From a virus, in the IMG/VR virus record IMGVR_UViG_3300033233_000009, positions 60,598-124,597 of that record: a stretch of DNA of 64,000 bases; one strand, 5' to 3'. Below are positions 38,670 through 60,920 of the stretch, piece by piece. Both the position numbers and the translations under genes were made by a program. Numbering within the stretch: position 1 is the first letter of the stretch; each line of letters opens with the position of its first letter. Below the pieces are notes generated by a model. The model was not told the origin of the DNA. It made no database searches and saw only the letters and a list, made by a program, of their open reading frames with translations.

Positions 38670-39707
38670 ATGGCCTCTCCGTCGCGTCCCCTCGACCCGC
38701 CCAGCAGGGATCTGCTTCGCCTCGACGCACGCGGCGCACTCGACCCGGCGAAGGCCGCGGAGCTGCTGACCGCCGTGGACGACGCCGCGGCATTCGTCCA
38801 GGCGGCCCGGTCGAAGGGAACCCGCGACGCCTACGCCTCGGACTGGCGACAGTTCGCCGCGTGGATCGAGTCGCACGGGCTCGACGCGCTGCCCGCCGAT
38901 CCGCGCATGGTCGCGCTCTGGCTCGGCCACATGGCGCGCGCGCTCAGCCGCAGGCCCGCCAGTATCCGCCGGATGCTTTCGACGATCGGCACCGTCCACA
39001 AGCGCGCCGGTCACCCGAACCCCTGCGAGCAGGAGGTGGTCCGCGAGGCCATGCGCGGCATCGCGAACACGCTCGGCGTTCGCCCGAAGCGCGCGGCGCC
39101 GCTCCTGATCCCCCACCTGGAAGCGCTCGTCGGAGGCATGGGGGCTGACCTCCGCGGCGTGCGCGACCGCGCGATCCTGCTCACCGGGTGGAGCGGTGCG
39201 CTCCGCCGAAGCGAGATCGCGGGACTCCTGGCCGAGGATCTGACCTTCCTCGACAAGGGCGTGAGCGTGCTGATCCGCCGGAGCAAGACCGACCAGCAAG
39301 GCGAGGGGCAGCACGTCGCGCTGTTCTACGCGACCCGCACGGCGCTCTGCCCGGTGCGGGCCCTGCAAGAGTGGATGGAGCGCGCCGGCATCACCGAGGG
39401 GCCCGTGTTCGTGCGACTCAGCGGGCACCGGAAGGACCCGCAGTTGATCGCGGACCCGCTCGCGCCCGAAATGATCCGCTACATCGTCCAGACCTGGACG
39501 AAGCGGGCGGGCGTGCAGCCCGAGCAGCTCGGCGCGGTGTTCAGCGCGCACTCGCTCCGCGCGGGCTTCATCACCGAGGCGGCCCGGAGCGGCAAGGCCG
39601 AGTGGATGATCGCCAAGCAGTCGCGCCACAAGAGCGCCGACGTGCTCCGCAGCTACATTCGCGTGGCCGACACGTTCCAGGGCAACGCGGGCGAGGGGCT
39701 GCTGTGA
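38670..39707 (+). CDS. tyrosine recombinase (Cre-like integrase/resolvase)
   Basis: N-terminal SAM-like domain TRDAYASDWRQF; RDRAILL..LRRSEI; RRSKTDQ; SAHSLRAGFIT; SRHKS..RSY. Confidence 0.92.
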   Translation: MASPSRPLDPPSRDLLRLDARGALDPAKAAELLTAVDDAAAFVQAARSKGTRDAYASDWRQFAAWIESHGLDALPADPRMVALWLGHMARALSRRPASIRRMLSTIGTVHKRAGHPNPCEQEVVREAMRGIANTLGVRPKRAAPLLIPHLEALVGGMGADLRGVRDRAILLTGWSGALRRSEIAGLLAEDLTFLDKGVSVLIRRSKTDQQGEGQHVALFYATRTALCPVRALQEWMERAGITEGPVFVRLSGHRKDPQLIADPLAPEMIRYIVQTWTKRAGVQPEQLGAVFSAHSLRAGFITEAARSGKAEWMIAKQSRHKSADVLRSYIRVADTFQGNAGEGLL

Positions 39708-40075
39708 AGCGGAAGGACGCGGAGGCGCTCCTCGGCTCGCGCGTGAGCGTCTGGACCGCCATGAACGGCGAGTACGTCGGGACGCTCGTGGACGTGGTCG
39801 GGAGCCCCTGGCGCGCAAAGGTGCAGATCACCGGCGTGCTCGCGCCCGCGGCGTTCGAGTGGAGCCGTGGGAGCCGGCAGCGCCCCGGCTTCCGCCCGGG
39901 ACAGGTCGTCGAGGTGGGCGGCGCGAGCGTGCGGCCAACGGCCGACCCCGGCACGACGTACGAGCAGGCGCTCCGCGTCGCCGCCGAGGTGGCGGAGGCG
40001 TCGGCAGCGACCGCCGGACCGCGCGACGTGTCCACGCTGCTCCGCGTCGCGGCGCACTACCGTGGTCAGCTCTAG
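39704..40075 (+). CDS. hypothetical protein
   Basis: GTGA overlap with the recombinase gene. Confidence 0.55.
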   Translation: MKRKDAEALLGSRVSVWTAMNGEYVGTLVDVVGSPWRAKVQITGVLAPAAFEWSRGSRQRPGFRPGQVVEVGGASVRPTADPGTTYEQALRVAAEVAEASAATAGPRDVSTLLRVAAHYRGQL

Positions 40076-40116
40076 CCCCGGCTTGCCACGGGCCTCCCGC
40101 CTGGTACTCTCCCCGC

Positions 40117-40191
40117 CGCGGCAGAGTGGCACGGTCCCACGCCAGGCCCATACCCTGGAGACAGTCGGTTCGACTCCGGCAGCCGCAACCA
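40117..40191 (+). tRNA. tRNA-Met(CAT), initiator-like, atypical
   Basis: Cloverleaf CGCGGCA/AGCCGCA-A-CCA; D arm GTGG/CCAC; anticodon arm CCAGG-ccCATac-CCTGG; T arm GTCGG-TTCGACT-CCGGC; promoter TTGCCA-N16-TACTCT at 40083-40110. Confidence 0.8.
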
Positions 40192-40254
40192 TCCCTGGGA
40201 GTTTCTTGCTCTGCTTGACGCCCGGTGCCGCCTCTGGCAGCGTTGGCGGCACGC

Positions 40255-41985
40255 ATGACCTCCATGGCCGCCGTCGTCCAGGGCACCGAGCGCTGGCACG
40301 TGCAGCACGCCGATTGCCGGTTCGCGCTCTCGTGCCTGCCCGATGCGTGCGTTGACGCGATCGTGTGCGATCCACCGTACGACCTCACGGCGGGCAAGAA
40401 GGGCGGCACCGGCGTCGCATCGCTGAACCTGAACTCACCCGCAGGTCGCGCGCGCATCTCGACCGGCTTCATGGGCAAGGCGTGGGACGGCACCGGGATC
40501 GCATTCGACCCGGCGATGTGGGCCGAAGCTCTCCGCGTTCTCAAGCCCGGCGGTCACCTGCTCGCGTTCGGCGGGACGCGGACCTACCACCGCATGACGT
40601 GTGCGATCGAGGACGCCGGCTTTGACGTTCGGGACTGTTTGGCATACATGTACGGCACCGGCTTCCCCAAAAGCCTCAACGTGCACGAGTCGGCGCGTGG
40701 GCTATACTGCGAGTGTGGTGACAGCGACGTGCACGGAGTGCGGGGCTCGGTACGAGACGCAAGCTTGCTGGCTCAAGCGAGTGAAGCGACCGAAGTGCTC
40801 CAGGGAGTGCAACGGAGCGGAGCGCGGTCGTCAGTGGGCGACGTTCGGTCACATGGGCCCGAAGGCGAAGACGGCGGAGTCGCTCAGGCGAGCGGCGGAC
40901 AAGATGCGTGGGCCACGGAACCCGGCCTGGAAGGGCGGGGCGACGTACTTCCGGAAACACGGGAATTACAAGCCGATCCGATACGTCAGATGTCCAGCGG
41001 AGCTAGCGTCGATGGCCCGCAAGGACGGATACGTGATGGAGCATCGGCTGCTCATGGCGCGGATGGCGAAGCGCCCGCTCGACCGCGTCGAGGTCGTGCA
41101 CCACGTGGACCACGACCCGCAGAACAATACGCCGACGAATCTGGAGCTGTGGCCAGACAACCGGTCACACAAGTTGGCGGAGCATGGCCGACATGTGGAA
41201 GGTGCGGCAAACCGCGTATCCCCTCCGGTTTCGGTACCGCGCTCAAGCCCGCCTTCGAGCCGGTCGTCCTCGCGCGAAAGCCCCTCGGCGGAACCGTCGC
41301 CGCGACGTTCATGGAGCACGGGACGGGCGCGCTGAACATCGACGGGTGCCGGATCGGAACGACCGTGGAAACATGGCCAGAGAGTCGCACATGGGGGCGT
41401 CCGCCGGTGCCAACGGACTGCAGCACCGGCAGCCCCGGCAGCACCGGCAGCCCGCCGCCCGGCCGCTGGCCTGCCAACGTGCTCCTCGACGCGGACGCGG
41501 CCGAAGTACTCGACGAGCAGGCGGGCGCTGTCACGCGCAACGGCGGCGGCCGGCAAATCTGGGGCGCGAGGAACACGAACGGTCCTGTACCAGACAGCGG
41601 TTACGCGGACTCCGGCGGACCATCGCGGTTCTTCTACACGGCGAAGGCGTCCAGATCCGAGCGCGACGCCGGTCTCGACGACTTCGACGCGCGGGCCGCT
41701 GGCGAGGCGACCGGGCGCAAGGACGGCAGCGCGGGACTCACGCCGCGAGCCGGTGCGGGTAGAGCTACCCGCACCGGCGTCCGCAACACTCACCCGACGG
41801 TCAAGCCCGTCGATCTGATGCGCTGGCTCGTGCGACTCGTCTGTCCGCCCGGCGGCATCGTGCTCGACCCGTTCGCTGGCAGTGGGACCACCGGCGTCGC
41901 CACGATGCTGGAAGGCTCCGGCCGACGCTTCATCGGCCTGGAACTCGACCCGCTGCACGTCGATGCGATCGGGGGAACGCCGTGA
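40255..41985 (+). CDS. N6/N4 DNA methyltransferase (beta class) with a large internal insertion
   Basis: DAIVCDPPY; GFMGKAWD; LRVLKPGGHLLAFGGTRTYHR; YGTGFPKS; GTALKPAFEP; GRWPAN; HPTVKP; VLDPFAGSGTTG. Confidence 0.92.
   Translation: MTSMAAVVQGTERWHVQHADCRFALSCLPDACVDAIVCDPPYDLTAGKKGGTGVASLNLNSPAGRARISTGFMGKAWDGTGIAFDPAMWAEALRVLKPGGHLLAFGGTRTYHRMTCAIEDAGFDVRDCLAYMYGTGFPKSLNVHESARGLYCECGDSDVHGVRGSVRDASLLAQASEATEVLQGVQRSGARSSVGDVRSHGPEGEDGGVAQASGGQDAWATEPGLEGRGDVLPETRELQADPIRQMSSGASVDGPQGRIRDGASAAHGADGEAPARPRRGRAPRGPRPAEQYADESGAVARQPVTQVGGAWPTCGRCGKPRIPSGFGTALKPAFEPVVLARKPLGGTVAATFMEHGTGALNIDGCRIGTTVETWPESRTWGRPPVPTDCSTGSPGSTGSPPPGRWPANVLLDADAAEVLDEQAGAVTRNGGGRQIWGARNTNGPVPDSGYADSGGPSRFFYTAKASRSERDAGLDDFDARAAGEATGRKDGSAGLTPRAGAGRATRTGVRNTHPTVKPVDLMRWLVRLVCPPGGIVLDPFAGSGTTGVATMLEGSGRRFIGLELDPLHVDAIGGTP
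40715..41335 (+). CDS. nested HNH endonuclease in the +1 frame inside the methyltransferase
   Basis: CTECG..KCSREC; GPRNPAWKGG; DGYVMEHRLLMA..RPL..EVVHHVDHDPQNNTPTNLEL..H..EH; TATACT at 40703, 6 nt before the GTG. Confidence 0.8.
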   Translation: MVTATCTECGARYETQACWLKRVKRPKCSRECNGAERGRQWATFGHMGPKAKTAESLRRAADKMRGPRNPAWKGGATYFRKHGNYKPIRYVRCPAELASMARKDGYVMEHRLLMARMAKRPLDRVEVVHHVDHDPQNNTPTNLELWPDNRSHKLAEHGRHVEGAANRVSPPVSVPRSSPPSSRSSSRESPSAEPSPRRSWSTGRAR

Positions 41986-42076
41986 CCACCTGCCACCACT
42001 GCCTCGCCCAGTTCGCCCCCCGACGAGTGCTGGCCGAGGCGCGGCGATTGTGCGACCGGCGGAGACGGGGTGTGCG

Positions 42077-43246
42077 GTGCTGACGAATCTGCAGAAGACG
42101 CCCTTTCCATGGTTCGGCGGGAAATCCGACGCTGCCCCATCCGTGTGGACCGCGCTGGGCGATGTCGATCACTACGTCGAGCCGTTCGCCGGCTCGCTCG
42201 CGGTGCTCCTCCGCAGGCCGCACCCGTGCAATCGGAGCTACTTCTCCGAGACCGTGAACGACCTCGACGGCCTGCTCGTGAATGCGTGGCGCTCCATGCA
42301 ACTCTCGCCCGACGCAATGGCTGATGCGGCGTCGTGGCCCGTCTCTGAGGCGGACATGCATGCGCGGCACTTGGCGCTCGTGAAGTGGCGGAACGAACGG
42401 CAGCTGGAGCACCTGATGGGCGACCCGGCGTTTCACGATCCGGTCATGGCCGGCTGGTGGTGCTGGGGCCAAGCGTGCTGGATCGGCTCGGGCTGGTGCG
42501 ACGGCGGAGGCGGGTGGATCGTGGGCGCGGACGGGCGGATTACGAAGGCGGCGCGCGAGCCGAACGGCATCGGGAAGCGCCAGCTCCCCCACCTCAGCAA
42601 CGACGGCCAAGGCGTGAACCGGCCGCAGGCACGCGAGCCGGGCGTGTCGCGCCAGCTCCCCCACCTCGGCGACGACGGCCAAGGCGTGAACCACGCCGGA
42701 GCGCGAGAGCCGGGCGTCGAGATCGACCACGAGTATCACCCGATGACGATGCCGGAACTGACCCGCTGGTTCCGCTTCCTGTCCGCGCGGCTGCGCCACG
42801 TGCGGATCCTCAATGGCGACTGGAAGCGCGCGCTGACCAACGGCGCAGCGAAGACGCTCCCTGTCCGCATGGGCGGGGCGTGCGGCGTGTTTCTCGATCC
42901 GCCCTACGCCGACACGGCCAAGCGCCAGAGTAACCTGTACGCGCACGACTCGGGAACGGTGGCGCACGAGGTCCGCGAATGGGCGCTCGCGCACGGGGAC
43001 GATCCGCAATTCCGGATCGTGCTCGCCGGGTACGCGGAGGAACACGTCATGCCGGACGGGTGGCGCGAAGTGGAGTGGTTCCGCAAGGGGTTCCTCAAGG
43101 GCGGCATGGGCAATCAGAGCGAGGGGCACGAGTCGCACCAGCAGCACAAAGAGAGGCTGTGGATGAGTCCGCATTGCCTCGCGCCGGAACTCGCGAAGCC
43201 GGCGGCACAGATGGCGATGTTCGACGCGCTCGGAGCCGCCCCATGA
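42077..43246 (+). CDS. D12-class (Dam-like) N6-adenine DNA methyltransferase
   Basis: PFPWFGGKS; YVEPFAGS; ETVNDLDG; VFLDPPY; ERLW; internal 24-aa tandem duplication. Confidence 0.88.
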   Translation: MLTNLQKTPFPWFGGKSDAAPSVWTALGDVDHYVEPFAGSLAVLLRRPHPCNRSYFSETVNDLDGLLVNAWRSMQLSPDAMADAASWPVSEADMHARHLALVKWRNERQLEHLMGDPAFHDPVMAGWWCWGQACWIGSGWCDGGGGWIVGADGRITKAAREPNGIGKRQLPHLSNDGQGVNRPQAREPGVSRQLPHLGDDGQGVNHAGAREPGVEIDHEYHPMTMPELTRWFRFLSARLRHVRILNGDWKRALTNGAAKTLPVRMGGACGVFLDPPYADTAKRQSNLYAHDSGTVAHEVREWALAHGDDPQFRIVLAGYAEEHVMPDGWREVEWFRKGFLKGGMGNQSEGHESHQQHKERLWMSPHCLAPELAKPAAQMAMFDALGAAP

Positions 43247-43458
43247 CCTGCCACCACTGCCTCGCCCAGTTCGCCCCCCGCAAGGCCGGCCAGCGCTTCT
43301 GTTCCGCCGAGTGCCGCTGCGCCGAGCGGAACGAGACGAAGCGCGCCGCCCCCGGGCACGACCACGCGACGCTGGACGAGGTTGCCGCCGCGATGGGGCT
43401 GGCGCAGGGCACCGCGCTGCAGAGGCTCACGACGCGCGGCCTGGAGGCGGACTACTGA
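43243..43458 (+). CDS. small Zn-finger/HTH protein
   Basis: CHHC..FCSAEC; TLDEVAAAMGL. Confidence 0.55.
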   Translation: MTCHHCLAQFAPRKAGQRFCSAECRCAERNETKRAAPGHDHATLDEVAAAMGLAQGTALQRLTTRGLEADY

Positions 43459-60449: not shown

Positions 60450-60920
60450 TCAGAGCCAGCGGGTAGCTTCCTCGGAAAGTTCGTAGCACCGCCGCCGGGC
60501 GCGTTCGATGCCGAGCAGGATGCGGGTCGCTGCCTCGACGTTGGTGCCTGCGCGACGGGCCAGGTCAGCCGCGGCCGTCCGCACGTCGAAGAACTTGCGC
60601 GGCTCGCCCTGCACCGGGACCACCGTGAGCAGGGGGACCAGCATGTGCTCCGGGCGCCCTGGTTTCACCCCGCCCTGAGAATGCGAGGGTGTCAGGTGCA
60701 GCCGTGCCATTACGCCGCGCGGCAGCGCGACCCGCACGTACTCGCGACCGGTCTTGCTGGCTCGCATAGCGATGCCGGCGAGGAGCCCCGCGTCACGCAG
60801 CGACGCACGTGTGTCCCGGAAAACCCCCAGGCCCTTCGTGATCGGCGCCAGGACGGCCGCGCCGCCGCCCGCTCCGCCGAGCGTCGCGGCGACAATCTCC
60901 CGTTGCAGGTTCGCGCGCAT
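60450..60920 (-). CDS. hypothetical protein
   Basis: MRANLQRE, in the operon between the MoxR and VWA genes. Confidence 0.5.
   Translation of the reverse strand: MRANLQREIVAATLGGAGGGAAVLAPITKGLGVFRDTRASLRDAGLLAGIAMRASKTGREYVRVALPRGVMARLHLTPSHSQGGVKPGRPEHMLVPLLTVVPVQGEPRKFFDVRTAAADLARRAGTNVEAATRILLGIERARRRCYELSEEATRWL

Follow-up and report, generated by a model that had tools for sequence, protein, structure and literature searches.

An HNH endonuclease gene overprinted in a phage DNA methyltransferase gene, with a candidate four-cysteine clasp

An HNH gene in the variable region of a phage methyltransferase

How can a gene harbour a second gene in another reading frame and still be readable from end to end? 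This question is raised by a 64,000-nucleotide stretch of viral DNA (positions 60,598 to 124,597 of the 124.6-kb IMG/VR record IMGVR_UViG_3300033233_000009; the whole stretch is called the window here), in which an HNH endonuclease is encoded within the gene for a DNA methyltransferase (methylase). The answer that we favour, with a probability of roughly 0.7, is that a mobile HNH cassette sits in a methylase that is translated through it, and that the ends of the resulting loop are pinned by a clasp of four cysteines. According to this model, an HNH homing endonuclease cassette would reside between the GFPKS and GTALKP motifs, in the variable region of a phage beta-class methyltransferase. The nuclease would be translated separately from an internal start (GTG 40697 or GTG 40715), while the methyltransferase would be translated straight across the cassette, with selection purging every stop. 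The insert would then form a disordered loop of ∼150-170 residues, and the four cysteines would most likely bind one zinc ion that pins the enzyme halves together. With such a clasp neither RNA splicing nor protein splicing would be needed, and the bracket of cysteines would move with the cassette and not with the methylase. The relevant features of the window, all on the plus strand, are as follows.

40225..41985, +, DNA methyltransferase open reading frame (ORF), 586 amino acids, alternative start ATG 40255; predicted to be read through the insert
40225..40674, +, N-terminal methylase core, ending in YGTGFPKS; mostly predicted with a score above 90 (see below)
40660-40674, +, GFPKS, core motif 5' of the variable region
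40675..41232, +, methylase variable region, 186 codons past GFPKS, junk-like and predicted to be disordered; houses the HNH cassette
40697..41335, +, HNH endonuclease ORF in the +1 frame; start GTG 40697, 40715 or 40718, stop 41333-41335
40703-40708, +, TATACT hexamer, followed by 6 nt and GTG 40715; also read as codons L-Y-C of the methylase frame
40708-40716, +, CxC (Cys-Glu-Cys), methylase frame; N-terminal pair of the bracket, 12 residues past GFPK
40715..41215, +, conserved part of the HNH protein, with an N-terminal CxxC...CSxxC zinc finger, NPAWKGG, MARKDGYVMEHRL and VHHxxHxP..N...NL.L...N..HK..E
41194-41205, +, CxxC (Cys-Gly-Arg-Cys), methylase frame; C-terminal pair of the bracket, 13 residues ahead of GTALKP
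41233-41250, +, GTALKP, core motif 3' of the variable region
41233..41985, +, C-terminal methylase core, from GTALKPAFEP to the end of the ORF; 50-60% identical in relatives

The methylase ORF matched PF01555 with an E-value of 5e-23. It belongs to the beta class of N6/N4 methylases: motif IV (DPPY), close to the N-terminus, precedes motif I (FxGSGTT, here FAGSGTT), close to the C-terminus, both motifs are intact, and the structure predicted by AlphaFold2 (AF2) has a Rossmann-like fold of the CcrM/RsrI type. The top Foldseek matches of this model were M.BceJIV, CcrM, MboIIA, RsrI and PvuII (E 4e-8 to 2e-4), and the enzyme is presumably active. Between GFPK and GTALKP the window has 187 amino acids of low complexity, against 7-12 or ∼50-75 in close insert-free relatives, so that the ∼165 extra codons estimated in an initial annotation of the sequence were of the right order. 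The predicted local distance difference test score (pLDDT) of the variable region is low, with means of 33-47 for blocks of 10 residues over model residues 161 to 300.

The +1 frame is free of stops from 40601 to 41335 (244 amino acids) and encodes a zinc-finger/HNH protein. Its stretch between 40715 and 41215 scored 25.0 bits with the HNH_3 profile, which is above the cut-off of 24.8, while the full 244-residue ORF scored 24.1 bits, slightly below it; 53 of 61 family members matched this profile at an E-value of 0.01 or better (best 9.5e-12). The window HNH retains 45 of the 45 columns that are conserved at 90% or more in the family, and keeps the family-invariant H129, N142, N149 and H152, for which the family name suggests a catalytic role. 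The AF2 model of the HNH frame has a mean pLDDT of 89.9, compared with 33-47 for the same DNA in the methylase frame. The coding frame of the insert is the HNH frame, as the initial annotation had recognized, and the nuclease is intact; presumably it is active on a target of its own.

Structural comparison of the HNH model by VIA-align gave I-HmuI (PDB 1u3e) as the top match (Z 5.4, root-mean-square deviation 4.4, 77 residues, 20% identity), with the remaining HNH/His-Me proteins at Z 2.2-3.2. This modest match is to an HNH homing endonuclease of Bacillus phage SPO1 that belongs to the same Pfam family, HNH_3. The gene for I-HmuI lies within a group I intron, whereas the window HNH has no intron. 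The window HNH may have a beta-beta-alpha-metal fold. A Foldseek search of solved structures with the HNH model yielded no match at E 0.001 or better, and the HNH sequence profile retrieved from solved structures nothing but chance matches to GAPDH (E 0.5).

Where the nuclease would start can be judged from its relatives. Among 20 direct relatives, whose HNH is inserted into the methylase as in the window (class A), 11 have an ATG or GTG in frame 11-13 codons ahead of the first zinc-finger cysteine, and 5 of these 11 are preceded by a Shine-Dalgarno-like sequence. In the window, GTG 40697 agrees with the N-terminal length of the family at least as well as GTG 40715, and either may serve. The TATACT hexamer noted in the initial annotation does lie 6 nt before GTG 40715; the promoter role that its position might suggest found no support. 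It has no -35 partner, a consensus scan of 40000-42200 found 0 promoter-like sites and 0 terminator-like sites, and by eye no such hexamer was seen at the matching place in relatives, within the 45 nt 5' of the first zinc-finger cysteine. If the HNH starts at GTG 40697, moreover, TATACT falls within its ORF.

Selection on the methylase frame across the insert

Is the methylase frame open across the insert by chance? In a test in which the synonymous codons of the HNH ORF were redrawn using local codon usage, the methylase frame of the window had 0 stops against 3.3 expected (P(0) = 0.0275), and the third frame 4 against 2.9 expected. In such GC-rich DNA, the open frame in the window taken alone is only marginally significant. 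The methylase might then be a dead gene that was broken by the HNH insertion and kept open by chance, as long spurious ORFs are abundant in DNA of 65-70% GC.

The family as a whole was therefore informative. Scanning viral contigs with the HNH protein gave 119 relatives; we retained 80, with full-length matches at 44-62% identity. Four of them were set aside, as L035 has its methylase on the opposite strand, L061 and L080 lie at contig ends and L091 has an unusual order. This left 76 evaluable viral loci at which the HNH sits between the N and C blocks of the methylase. The HNH is +1 relative to the methylase in 75 of these 76 loci, and in 69 of them the methylase frame runs without stops from the N block to the C block. 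Six of the other seven have a frame that is open across the HNH into GTALKP and breaks further downstream, which leaves L077 as the sole exception. Cellular genome contigs (one genome per prokaryote species) added 19 loci from very different phyla, and the frame was open in 18 of these.

The 69 open loci together have 0 stops in the methylase frame where 528 were expected, as opposed to 606 seen and 463 expected in the control frame. These loci were selected as open, are interrelated and include four identical pairs, but the stop deficit across the family is much too big for this to matter. Members with a GC content of 34-45% in the HNH segment, for which 10-20 stops apiece would be expected, avoid them as well. 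We conclude that the methylase frame is held open by selection. As the DPPY and FAGSGTT catalytic motifs of the window methylase are intact and its core is modelled with confidence, a dead methylase gene is scarcely credible.

A further possibility is that the segment is removed by an unrecognised intron, ribosome bypassing or unconventional protein splicing, with the open frame being incidental. Introns with an ORF inside may escape the Rfam models, and splicing was left formally open by the authors who described a related insert, the ShiLan domain discussed below (PMC11855218). An Rfam E-value scan of 39500-42500 nevertheless gave only five weak unrelated matches, and no intron family even at E 10. 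Since the HNH ORF fills almost the whole insert, there is little space outside it for a ribozyme core. Stop avoidance in 75 of 76 loci and the selection on cysteine codons described below would be pointless if the segment were untranslated, and two natural deletions of the HNH core, in Abrogate and Oogway, both preserve the host frame. Such removal therefore seems very improbable.

Both classical elements were considered for the window insert and rejected. An intein would require a Cys/Ser at position +1, a block B TxxH and a C-terminal (H)N followed by Ser/Thr/Cys, none of which is present; the statement in the initial annotation that intein C1/HN ends are missing was confirmed at the insert borders, which lack Cys1 and HN + S/T/C ends, and the intein blocks are likewise absent. 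A group I or group II intron was dismissed as no intron covariance model matched and the host frame is open. A candidate for an empty allele, a joint in a DNA run that connects 40616 to 41326 and skips 709 (side 24, likeness 85), probably stems from the methylase of another organism and was not counted. Among the contigs of two DNA runs, one from a run that may be the source of the window spans the methylase gene without differences.

A four-cysteine bracket around the insert

If the methylase is translated through the insert, what happens at the borders of the loop? The CxC and CxxC pairs that flank the insert in the methylase frame were already seen in the initial annotation, and their positions were confirmed. 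To these we can add 35 further direct inserts, since the bracket was scored in 36 in total: that of the window itself, those of 26 loci and those of 9 proteins from databases. Of these, 30 were called as having both pairs by a regular expression and four more by inspection (L020, L078, L089 and P0095). Both pairs were thus present in 34 of the 36 inserts, neither in 2, and one pair alone in none. The spacing to the core motifs is tight: among the 30 inserts scored for it, the CxxC begins 13 residues before GTALKP in 29, and the CxC lies 5 or 10-14 residues past GFPK. In the AF2 model of the methylase the CxxC block has a pLDDT of 90 and the CxC blocks 69-79, while the loop between them stays below 50.

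The cysteine codons show selection on the methylase frame. Where the HNH frame overlaps the first Cys of the CxxC, its residues differ among members (F/I/H, then V/A), as the codons TGT and TGC permit, whereas the Cys is invariant. Because the Cys is constant while the HNH residues vary, selection must act on the methylase frame, which in turn argues that this frame is translated there, presumably as a read-through protein.

The bracket is also exclusive to methylases with the insert. We compared the variable regions of the 120 methylases closest to the C-terminal part of the window methylase, seven of which had no scorable motif. Ten have a region of 170-188 amino acids, and all ten are bracketed (9 tagged automatically and P0095 by eye); among the 103 shorter scorable regions, the order CxC-then-CxxC occurs in none. 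Conversely, the DNA pattern C-G-x-P...GTALKP was found in 30 viral stretches, 27 of which are methylases, and an HNH lies immediately upstream in all 27. Comparisons of this kind, an alignment with insert-less homologues and a search for bracketed inserts with an HNH in the alternate frame, had been proposed in the initial annotation.

In our literature searches, which covered main texts, no published description of the bracket was found, including by a search of PMC11855218 for words on zinc and cysteine; supplements may list more elements or features. The conserved four-cysteine bracket linked to the cassette is the novel part of this work and is well supported as a selected feature. Its putative function as a zinc clasp is an inference.

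Known systems, natural variants and mobility

The closest published system is the ShiLan domain, an out-of-frame HNH in an insert of a mycobacteriophage methylase (Gosselin et al. 2023, PMC9957025; Arsenault, Gosselin and Gogarten 2025, PMC11855218). As described in the accessible parts of PMC11855218, its host frame has no stops, signs of an intron or intein are lacking, the insert is predicted to loop out, and its patchy distribution is read as homing; zinc and cysteines come up there solely for the fingers of the HNH itself and for intein chemistry. The window shares with it the PF01555 host, a complete HNH in another frame, the absence of host stops and the absence of an intron or intein. 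The HNH proteins of the window and of the ShiLan-type insert in Pollywog also have in common the CxxC...CSxxC finger, NPxW.GG, GYV..EHR and VHH...N...NL. The window element is thus a hidden out-of-frame HNH insertion in a phage methylase as defined in PMC11855218. The hidden-nuclease layout itself was published in 2025 as the ShiLan domain, and the strategy that the initial annotation had taken to be different from introns and inteins, namely read-through and looping out, is accordingly not new as such (PMC11855218).

The window element is, however, not a ShiLan domain proper, as site, frame and sequence all differ. In Pollywog the ShiLan insertion lies inside GTALKPxxEP/xxxARKP, its HNH is in the +2 frame and the host-frame CxC...CxxC is absent, whereas the window insertion lies between GFPKS and GTALKP, with its HNH in the +1 frame and the bracket present. 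A tblastn search (1e-5) of mycobacteriophages with the window HNH gave no match, ShiLan and Lamina13 types included.

A second type is found in the methylases of the mycobacteriophages Lamina13 and Applejack. It occupies the GFPKS-GTALKP region in the +1 frame of an open host frame and has the bracket CDC ... CSWCGLP; the GenBank records of StellaBean, Lamina13 and Applejack annotate the HNH gene as nested +1 in the methylase. By our reading of the sequence the HNH subfamily differs, in that the Lamina13 type has a CxxC...HVHH...CxxCH core and an additional N-terminal helix-turn-helix-like part. Both Cys pairs of the bracket fall inside the HNH ORF in this type. The genome announcement of Applejack names the out-of-frame HNH arrangement only, and a description of the bracket was not found in its accessible text (PMC12613952). 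Judged from the sequences compared, the window element is new by site and frame with respect to ShiLan, and by HNH subfamily with respect to the Lamina13 type.

Relatives of the window HNH also occur in other settings. Of the 76 evaluable relatives, at least 42 lie in the +1 frame of a canonical intein that interrupts the same methylase (YG/CLSEDTEI...TGN/SGFPKS; L017-L090, e.g. L029:2074-3090). The intein profile matched the solved inteins 6zgq (E 2.7e-7) and 9hth (7.6e-4); no Pfam Hint or intein family was found in the four intein-borne (class B) proteins among six scanned, and NCBIfam gave for class B one weak match, to the intein-containing Rv2578c family (E 0.0037). Out of 45 class B loci, 16 had no GTALKP that matched the pattern and were left unscored; the CxxC was present in 0 of the 29 scorable intein-borne copies. 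Bracket and intein are therefore alternatives. At several intein loci the open HNH frame reaches back to 7 nt past the first base of the intein and includes a further zinc finger (YPFWKVCxxC...CSxxC), which precedes the portion in common with the window.

Homing endonucleases in another frame of an intein have precedents. A cyanobacterial dnaX intein reportedly carries its homing endonuclease in this way. Such inteins are described in a preprint by Gosselin, Arsenault and Gogarten (bioRxiv 10.1101/2025.01.02.630785); as far as its accessible text shows, an HNH in another frame is not among its cases, and none of them lies in a methylase. The at least 42 intein-borne HNH relatives are like these, whereas the window itself has no intein.

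In a third setting the host gene is broken. At L110:3283-5217, and in an identical sequence in L103, the methylase is split into an N fragment of 152 amino acids that ends ...WCQCDD-stop, two residues past the CxC; a free-standing, Lamina13-like HNH of 192 amino acids; and a C fragment that starts with M-T-I-C-S-C-C-G-K-P, three residues ahead of the CxxC, and has its own AAGGA ribosome site upstream. The old host frame has 12 stops across the HNH. The break thus falls exactly between the two Cys pairs, as would be expected if the pairs hold the halves together. Free-standing homing endonuclease genes can split a host gene into two ORFs, such as mobE in nrdA of phage Aeh1; L110 and L103 show this mobE-like state, whereas the host gene in the window is not split and would be read through.

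Two further forms have lost the nuclease. In the mycobacteriophages Abrogate (L011:1104-2261) and Oogway (L012:1104-2357), in-frame deletions that differ between the two affect the HNH core but retain CDC...CSWC, and these forms look like 'mini' derivatives of the Lamina13-type cassette, analogous to mini-inteins. On the Curtobacterium pusillum plasmid pCPAA3 (L135), finally, an HNH relative is free-standing at 2501-2989, downstream of an uninterrupted methylase at 1056-2117 whose N and C blocks are adjacent. This arrangement may represent the ancestral state of the cassette.

Does the cassette move? Trees were built with FastTree, without L077 and without four loci that duplicate others (L015, L026, L032 and L063). 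The setting of the HNH, scored as direct or intein, changes 3 times on the HNH tree, compared with 14 and 15 times on the trees of the N and C parts of the methylase. The window falls within a clade of 21 members with a support of 96, all of them direct inserts. The distribution is patchy, with the insert in 10 of the 120 closest methylases and with label changes that are discordant with the (weakly supported) methylase trees. It is this patchiness that suggests homing of the cassette. Eighteen phage records contain the Lamina13-type cassette at 98.6-100% identity, across 80% or more of its length, and the records whose taxonomy was seen belong to the genera Fromanvirus, Cheoctovirus and Omegavirus. 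The locus of the StellaBean cassette corresponds to a helix-turn-helix-type region in the Kostyavirus HanKaySha. Among mycobacteriophage methylases (L001-L009 versus L004-L006), the entire GFPKS-GTALKP stretch is seen to be exchanged as a block, which holds either a helix-turn-helix-like module, by our reading of the sequence, or the bracketed HNH cassette.

These data also bear on whether the HNH is selfish at all. It could be a working partner of the methylase, with cutting blocked by methylation and nesting ensuring co-inheritance. The HNH family indeed rarely occurs outside this methylase family, which hosts it at 75 of 76 viral loci and at 18 of 19 loci from genomes, and both proteins are intact across 45-60% sequence divergence. 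A partnership fits poorly, however, with an insert in so few of the closest methylases, with context changes that number 14-15 on the methylase trees but 3 on that of the HNH, and with a Lamina13-type cassette that is near-identical across phage genera. The presence of the same HNH inside a bona fide intein is, moreover, the hallmark of a homing element. We consider the partnership improbable.

More serious is the alternative that the bracket is a native zinc knuckle of a methylase variant, perhaps one that contacts DNA or stabilises the protein, into which two HNH subfamilies were inserted independently, so that it would be a landing site and not a part of the element. The same bracket at the same place surrounds both the window-type (HNH_3) and the Lamina13-type HNH, which fits a host-side hotspot as well as it fits a module borne by the element. 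Three insert-free methylases (P0103, P0110 and P0119) have a compact four-cysteine knuckle, CxxCGK-x8/9-CxCP, in the same variable region, and fixed spacing to core motifs is what a host structural module would show. On the other hand, the pairs of these three knuckles are in reversed order, the order CxC-then-CxxC is absent from all 103 shorter scorable regions, and an HNH was upstream in every one of the 27 methylases that matched the DNA pattern. The only HNH-less bracketed forms seen, Abrogate and Oogway, still hold remnants of the cassette, and mycobacteriophages swap the whole GFPKS-GTALKP stretch, bracket included, as a near-identical block. A native knuckle is therefore unlikely, though less so than the other alternatives to our favoured reading.

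In addition to the compact knuckles and the bracket shared by two HNH subfamilies, several observations weigh against a clasped, mobile cassette. The open frame of the window is marginal when taken alone, and the counts of loci are not independent events, given that all loci share ancestry and a few have the same sequence. The trees were based on short segments and have weak support. No clear ribosome site was seen ahead of the window GTGs at 40697, 40715 and 40718. The window HNH also lacks the usual stop of the family, which in relatives lies in the codons shortly before GTALKP, and continues to 41335; its stop is 39 codons past the end of the 167-residue query piece, compared with 1-19 in the 20 class A relatives. 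Many relatives have further cysteines in the junk region (4-13 in all). Finally, the direct inserts L060 and L092 and the ShiLan-type insert of Pollywog have no bracket, so that the clasp is not required for the out-of-frame life style of an HNH.

A broader interpretation of the favoured reading is that an element-borne 'zinc clasp' would be a third solution beside RNA and protein splicing. Two half-sites would rejoin the host halves around one metal, in cis in the window or in trans in L110, and the HNH lineage would have switched between being intein-borne and being clasp-borne. We propose this tentatively, as an idea that is somewhat less likely than not to be right.

Some other features of the window were observed in the surroundings of the methylase gene. 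A perfect direct repeat of 35 nt, at 41988-42022 and 43246-43280 (1258 nt apart), flanks a second methylase gene (D12-class, PF02086), and each copy opens a small zinc-finger-like ORF (TCHHCLAQFAP...); a cassette may have been inserted or duplicated here and have left the repeats as a scar. The D12-class methylase ORF contains a tandem duplication at 42577-42717 (2 x 69 nt, 72 from start to start, 84% identity). Between a tyrosine integrase (38670-39707) and the methylase lies a tRNA-like stretch at 40125-40180. It was rejected as a tRNA beside the integrase, as ARAGORN finds none in the window and the Rfam tRNA score of 21.9 bits is below the cut-off of 29; what is left of an attachment site, or a tRNA that has degenerated, could account for it.

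If our reading is correct, a coding region can host a selfish nuclease gene without splicing chemistry, and overprinting, stop avoidance and a small metal site would suffice. This would explain how such elements escape gene callers as well as searches for inteins and introns. For annotation, methylases of this family with a variable region of ∼170-230 residues merit a check for a gene in the +1 frame. The same HNH is found in four settings, namely inteins, loops with the candidate clasp, a split gene and a free-standing position beside an uninterrupted methylase, which provides a comparative series. The repertoire of homing elements would thus be wider, and the bracket would offer a compact natural module for large insertions or for the reassembly of split proteins.

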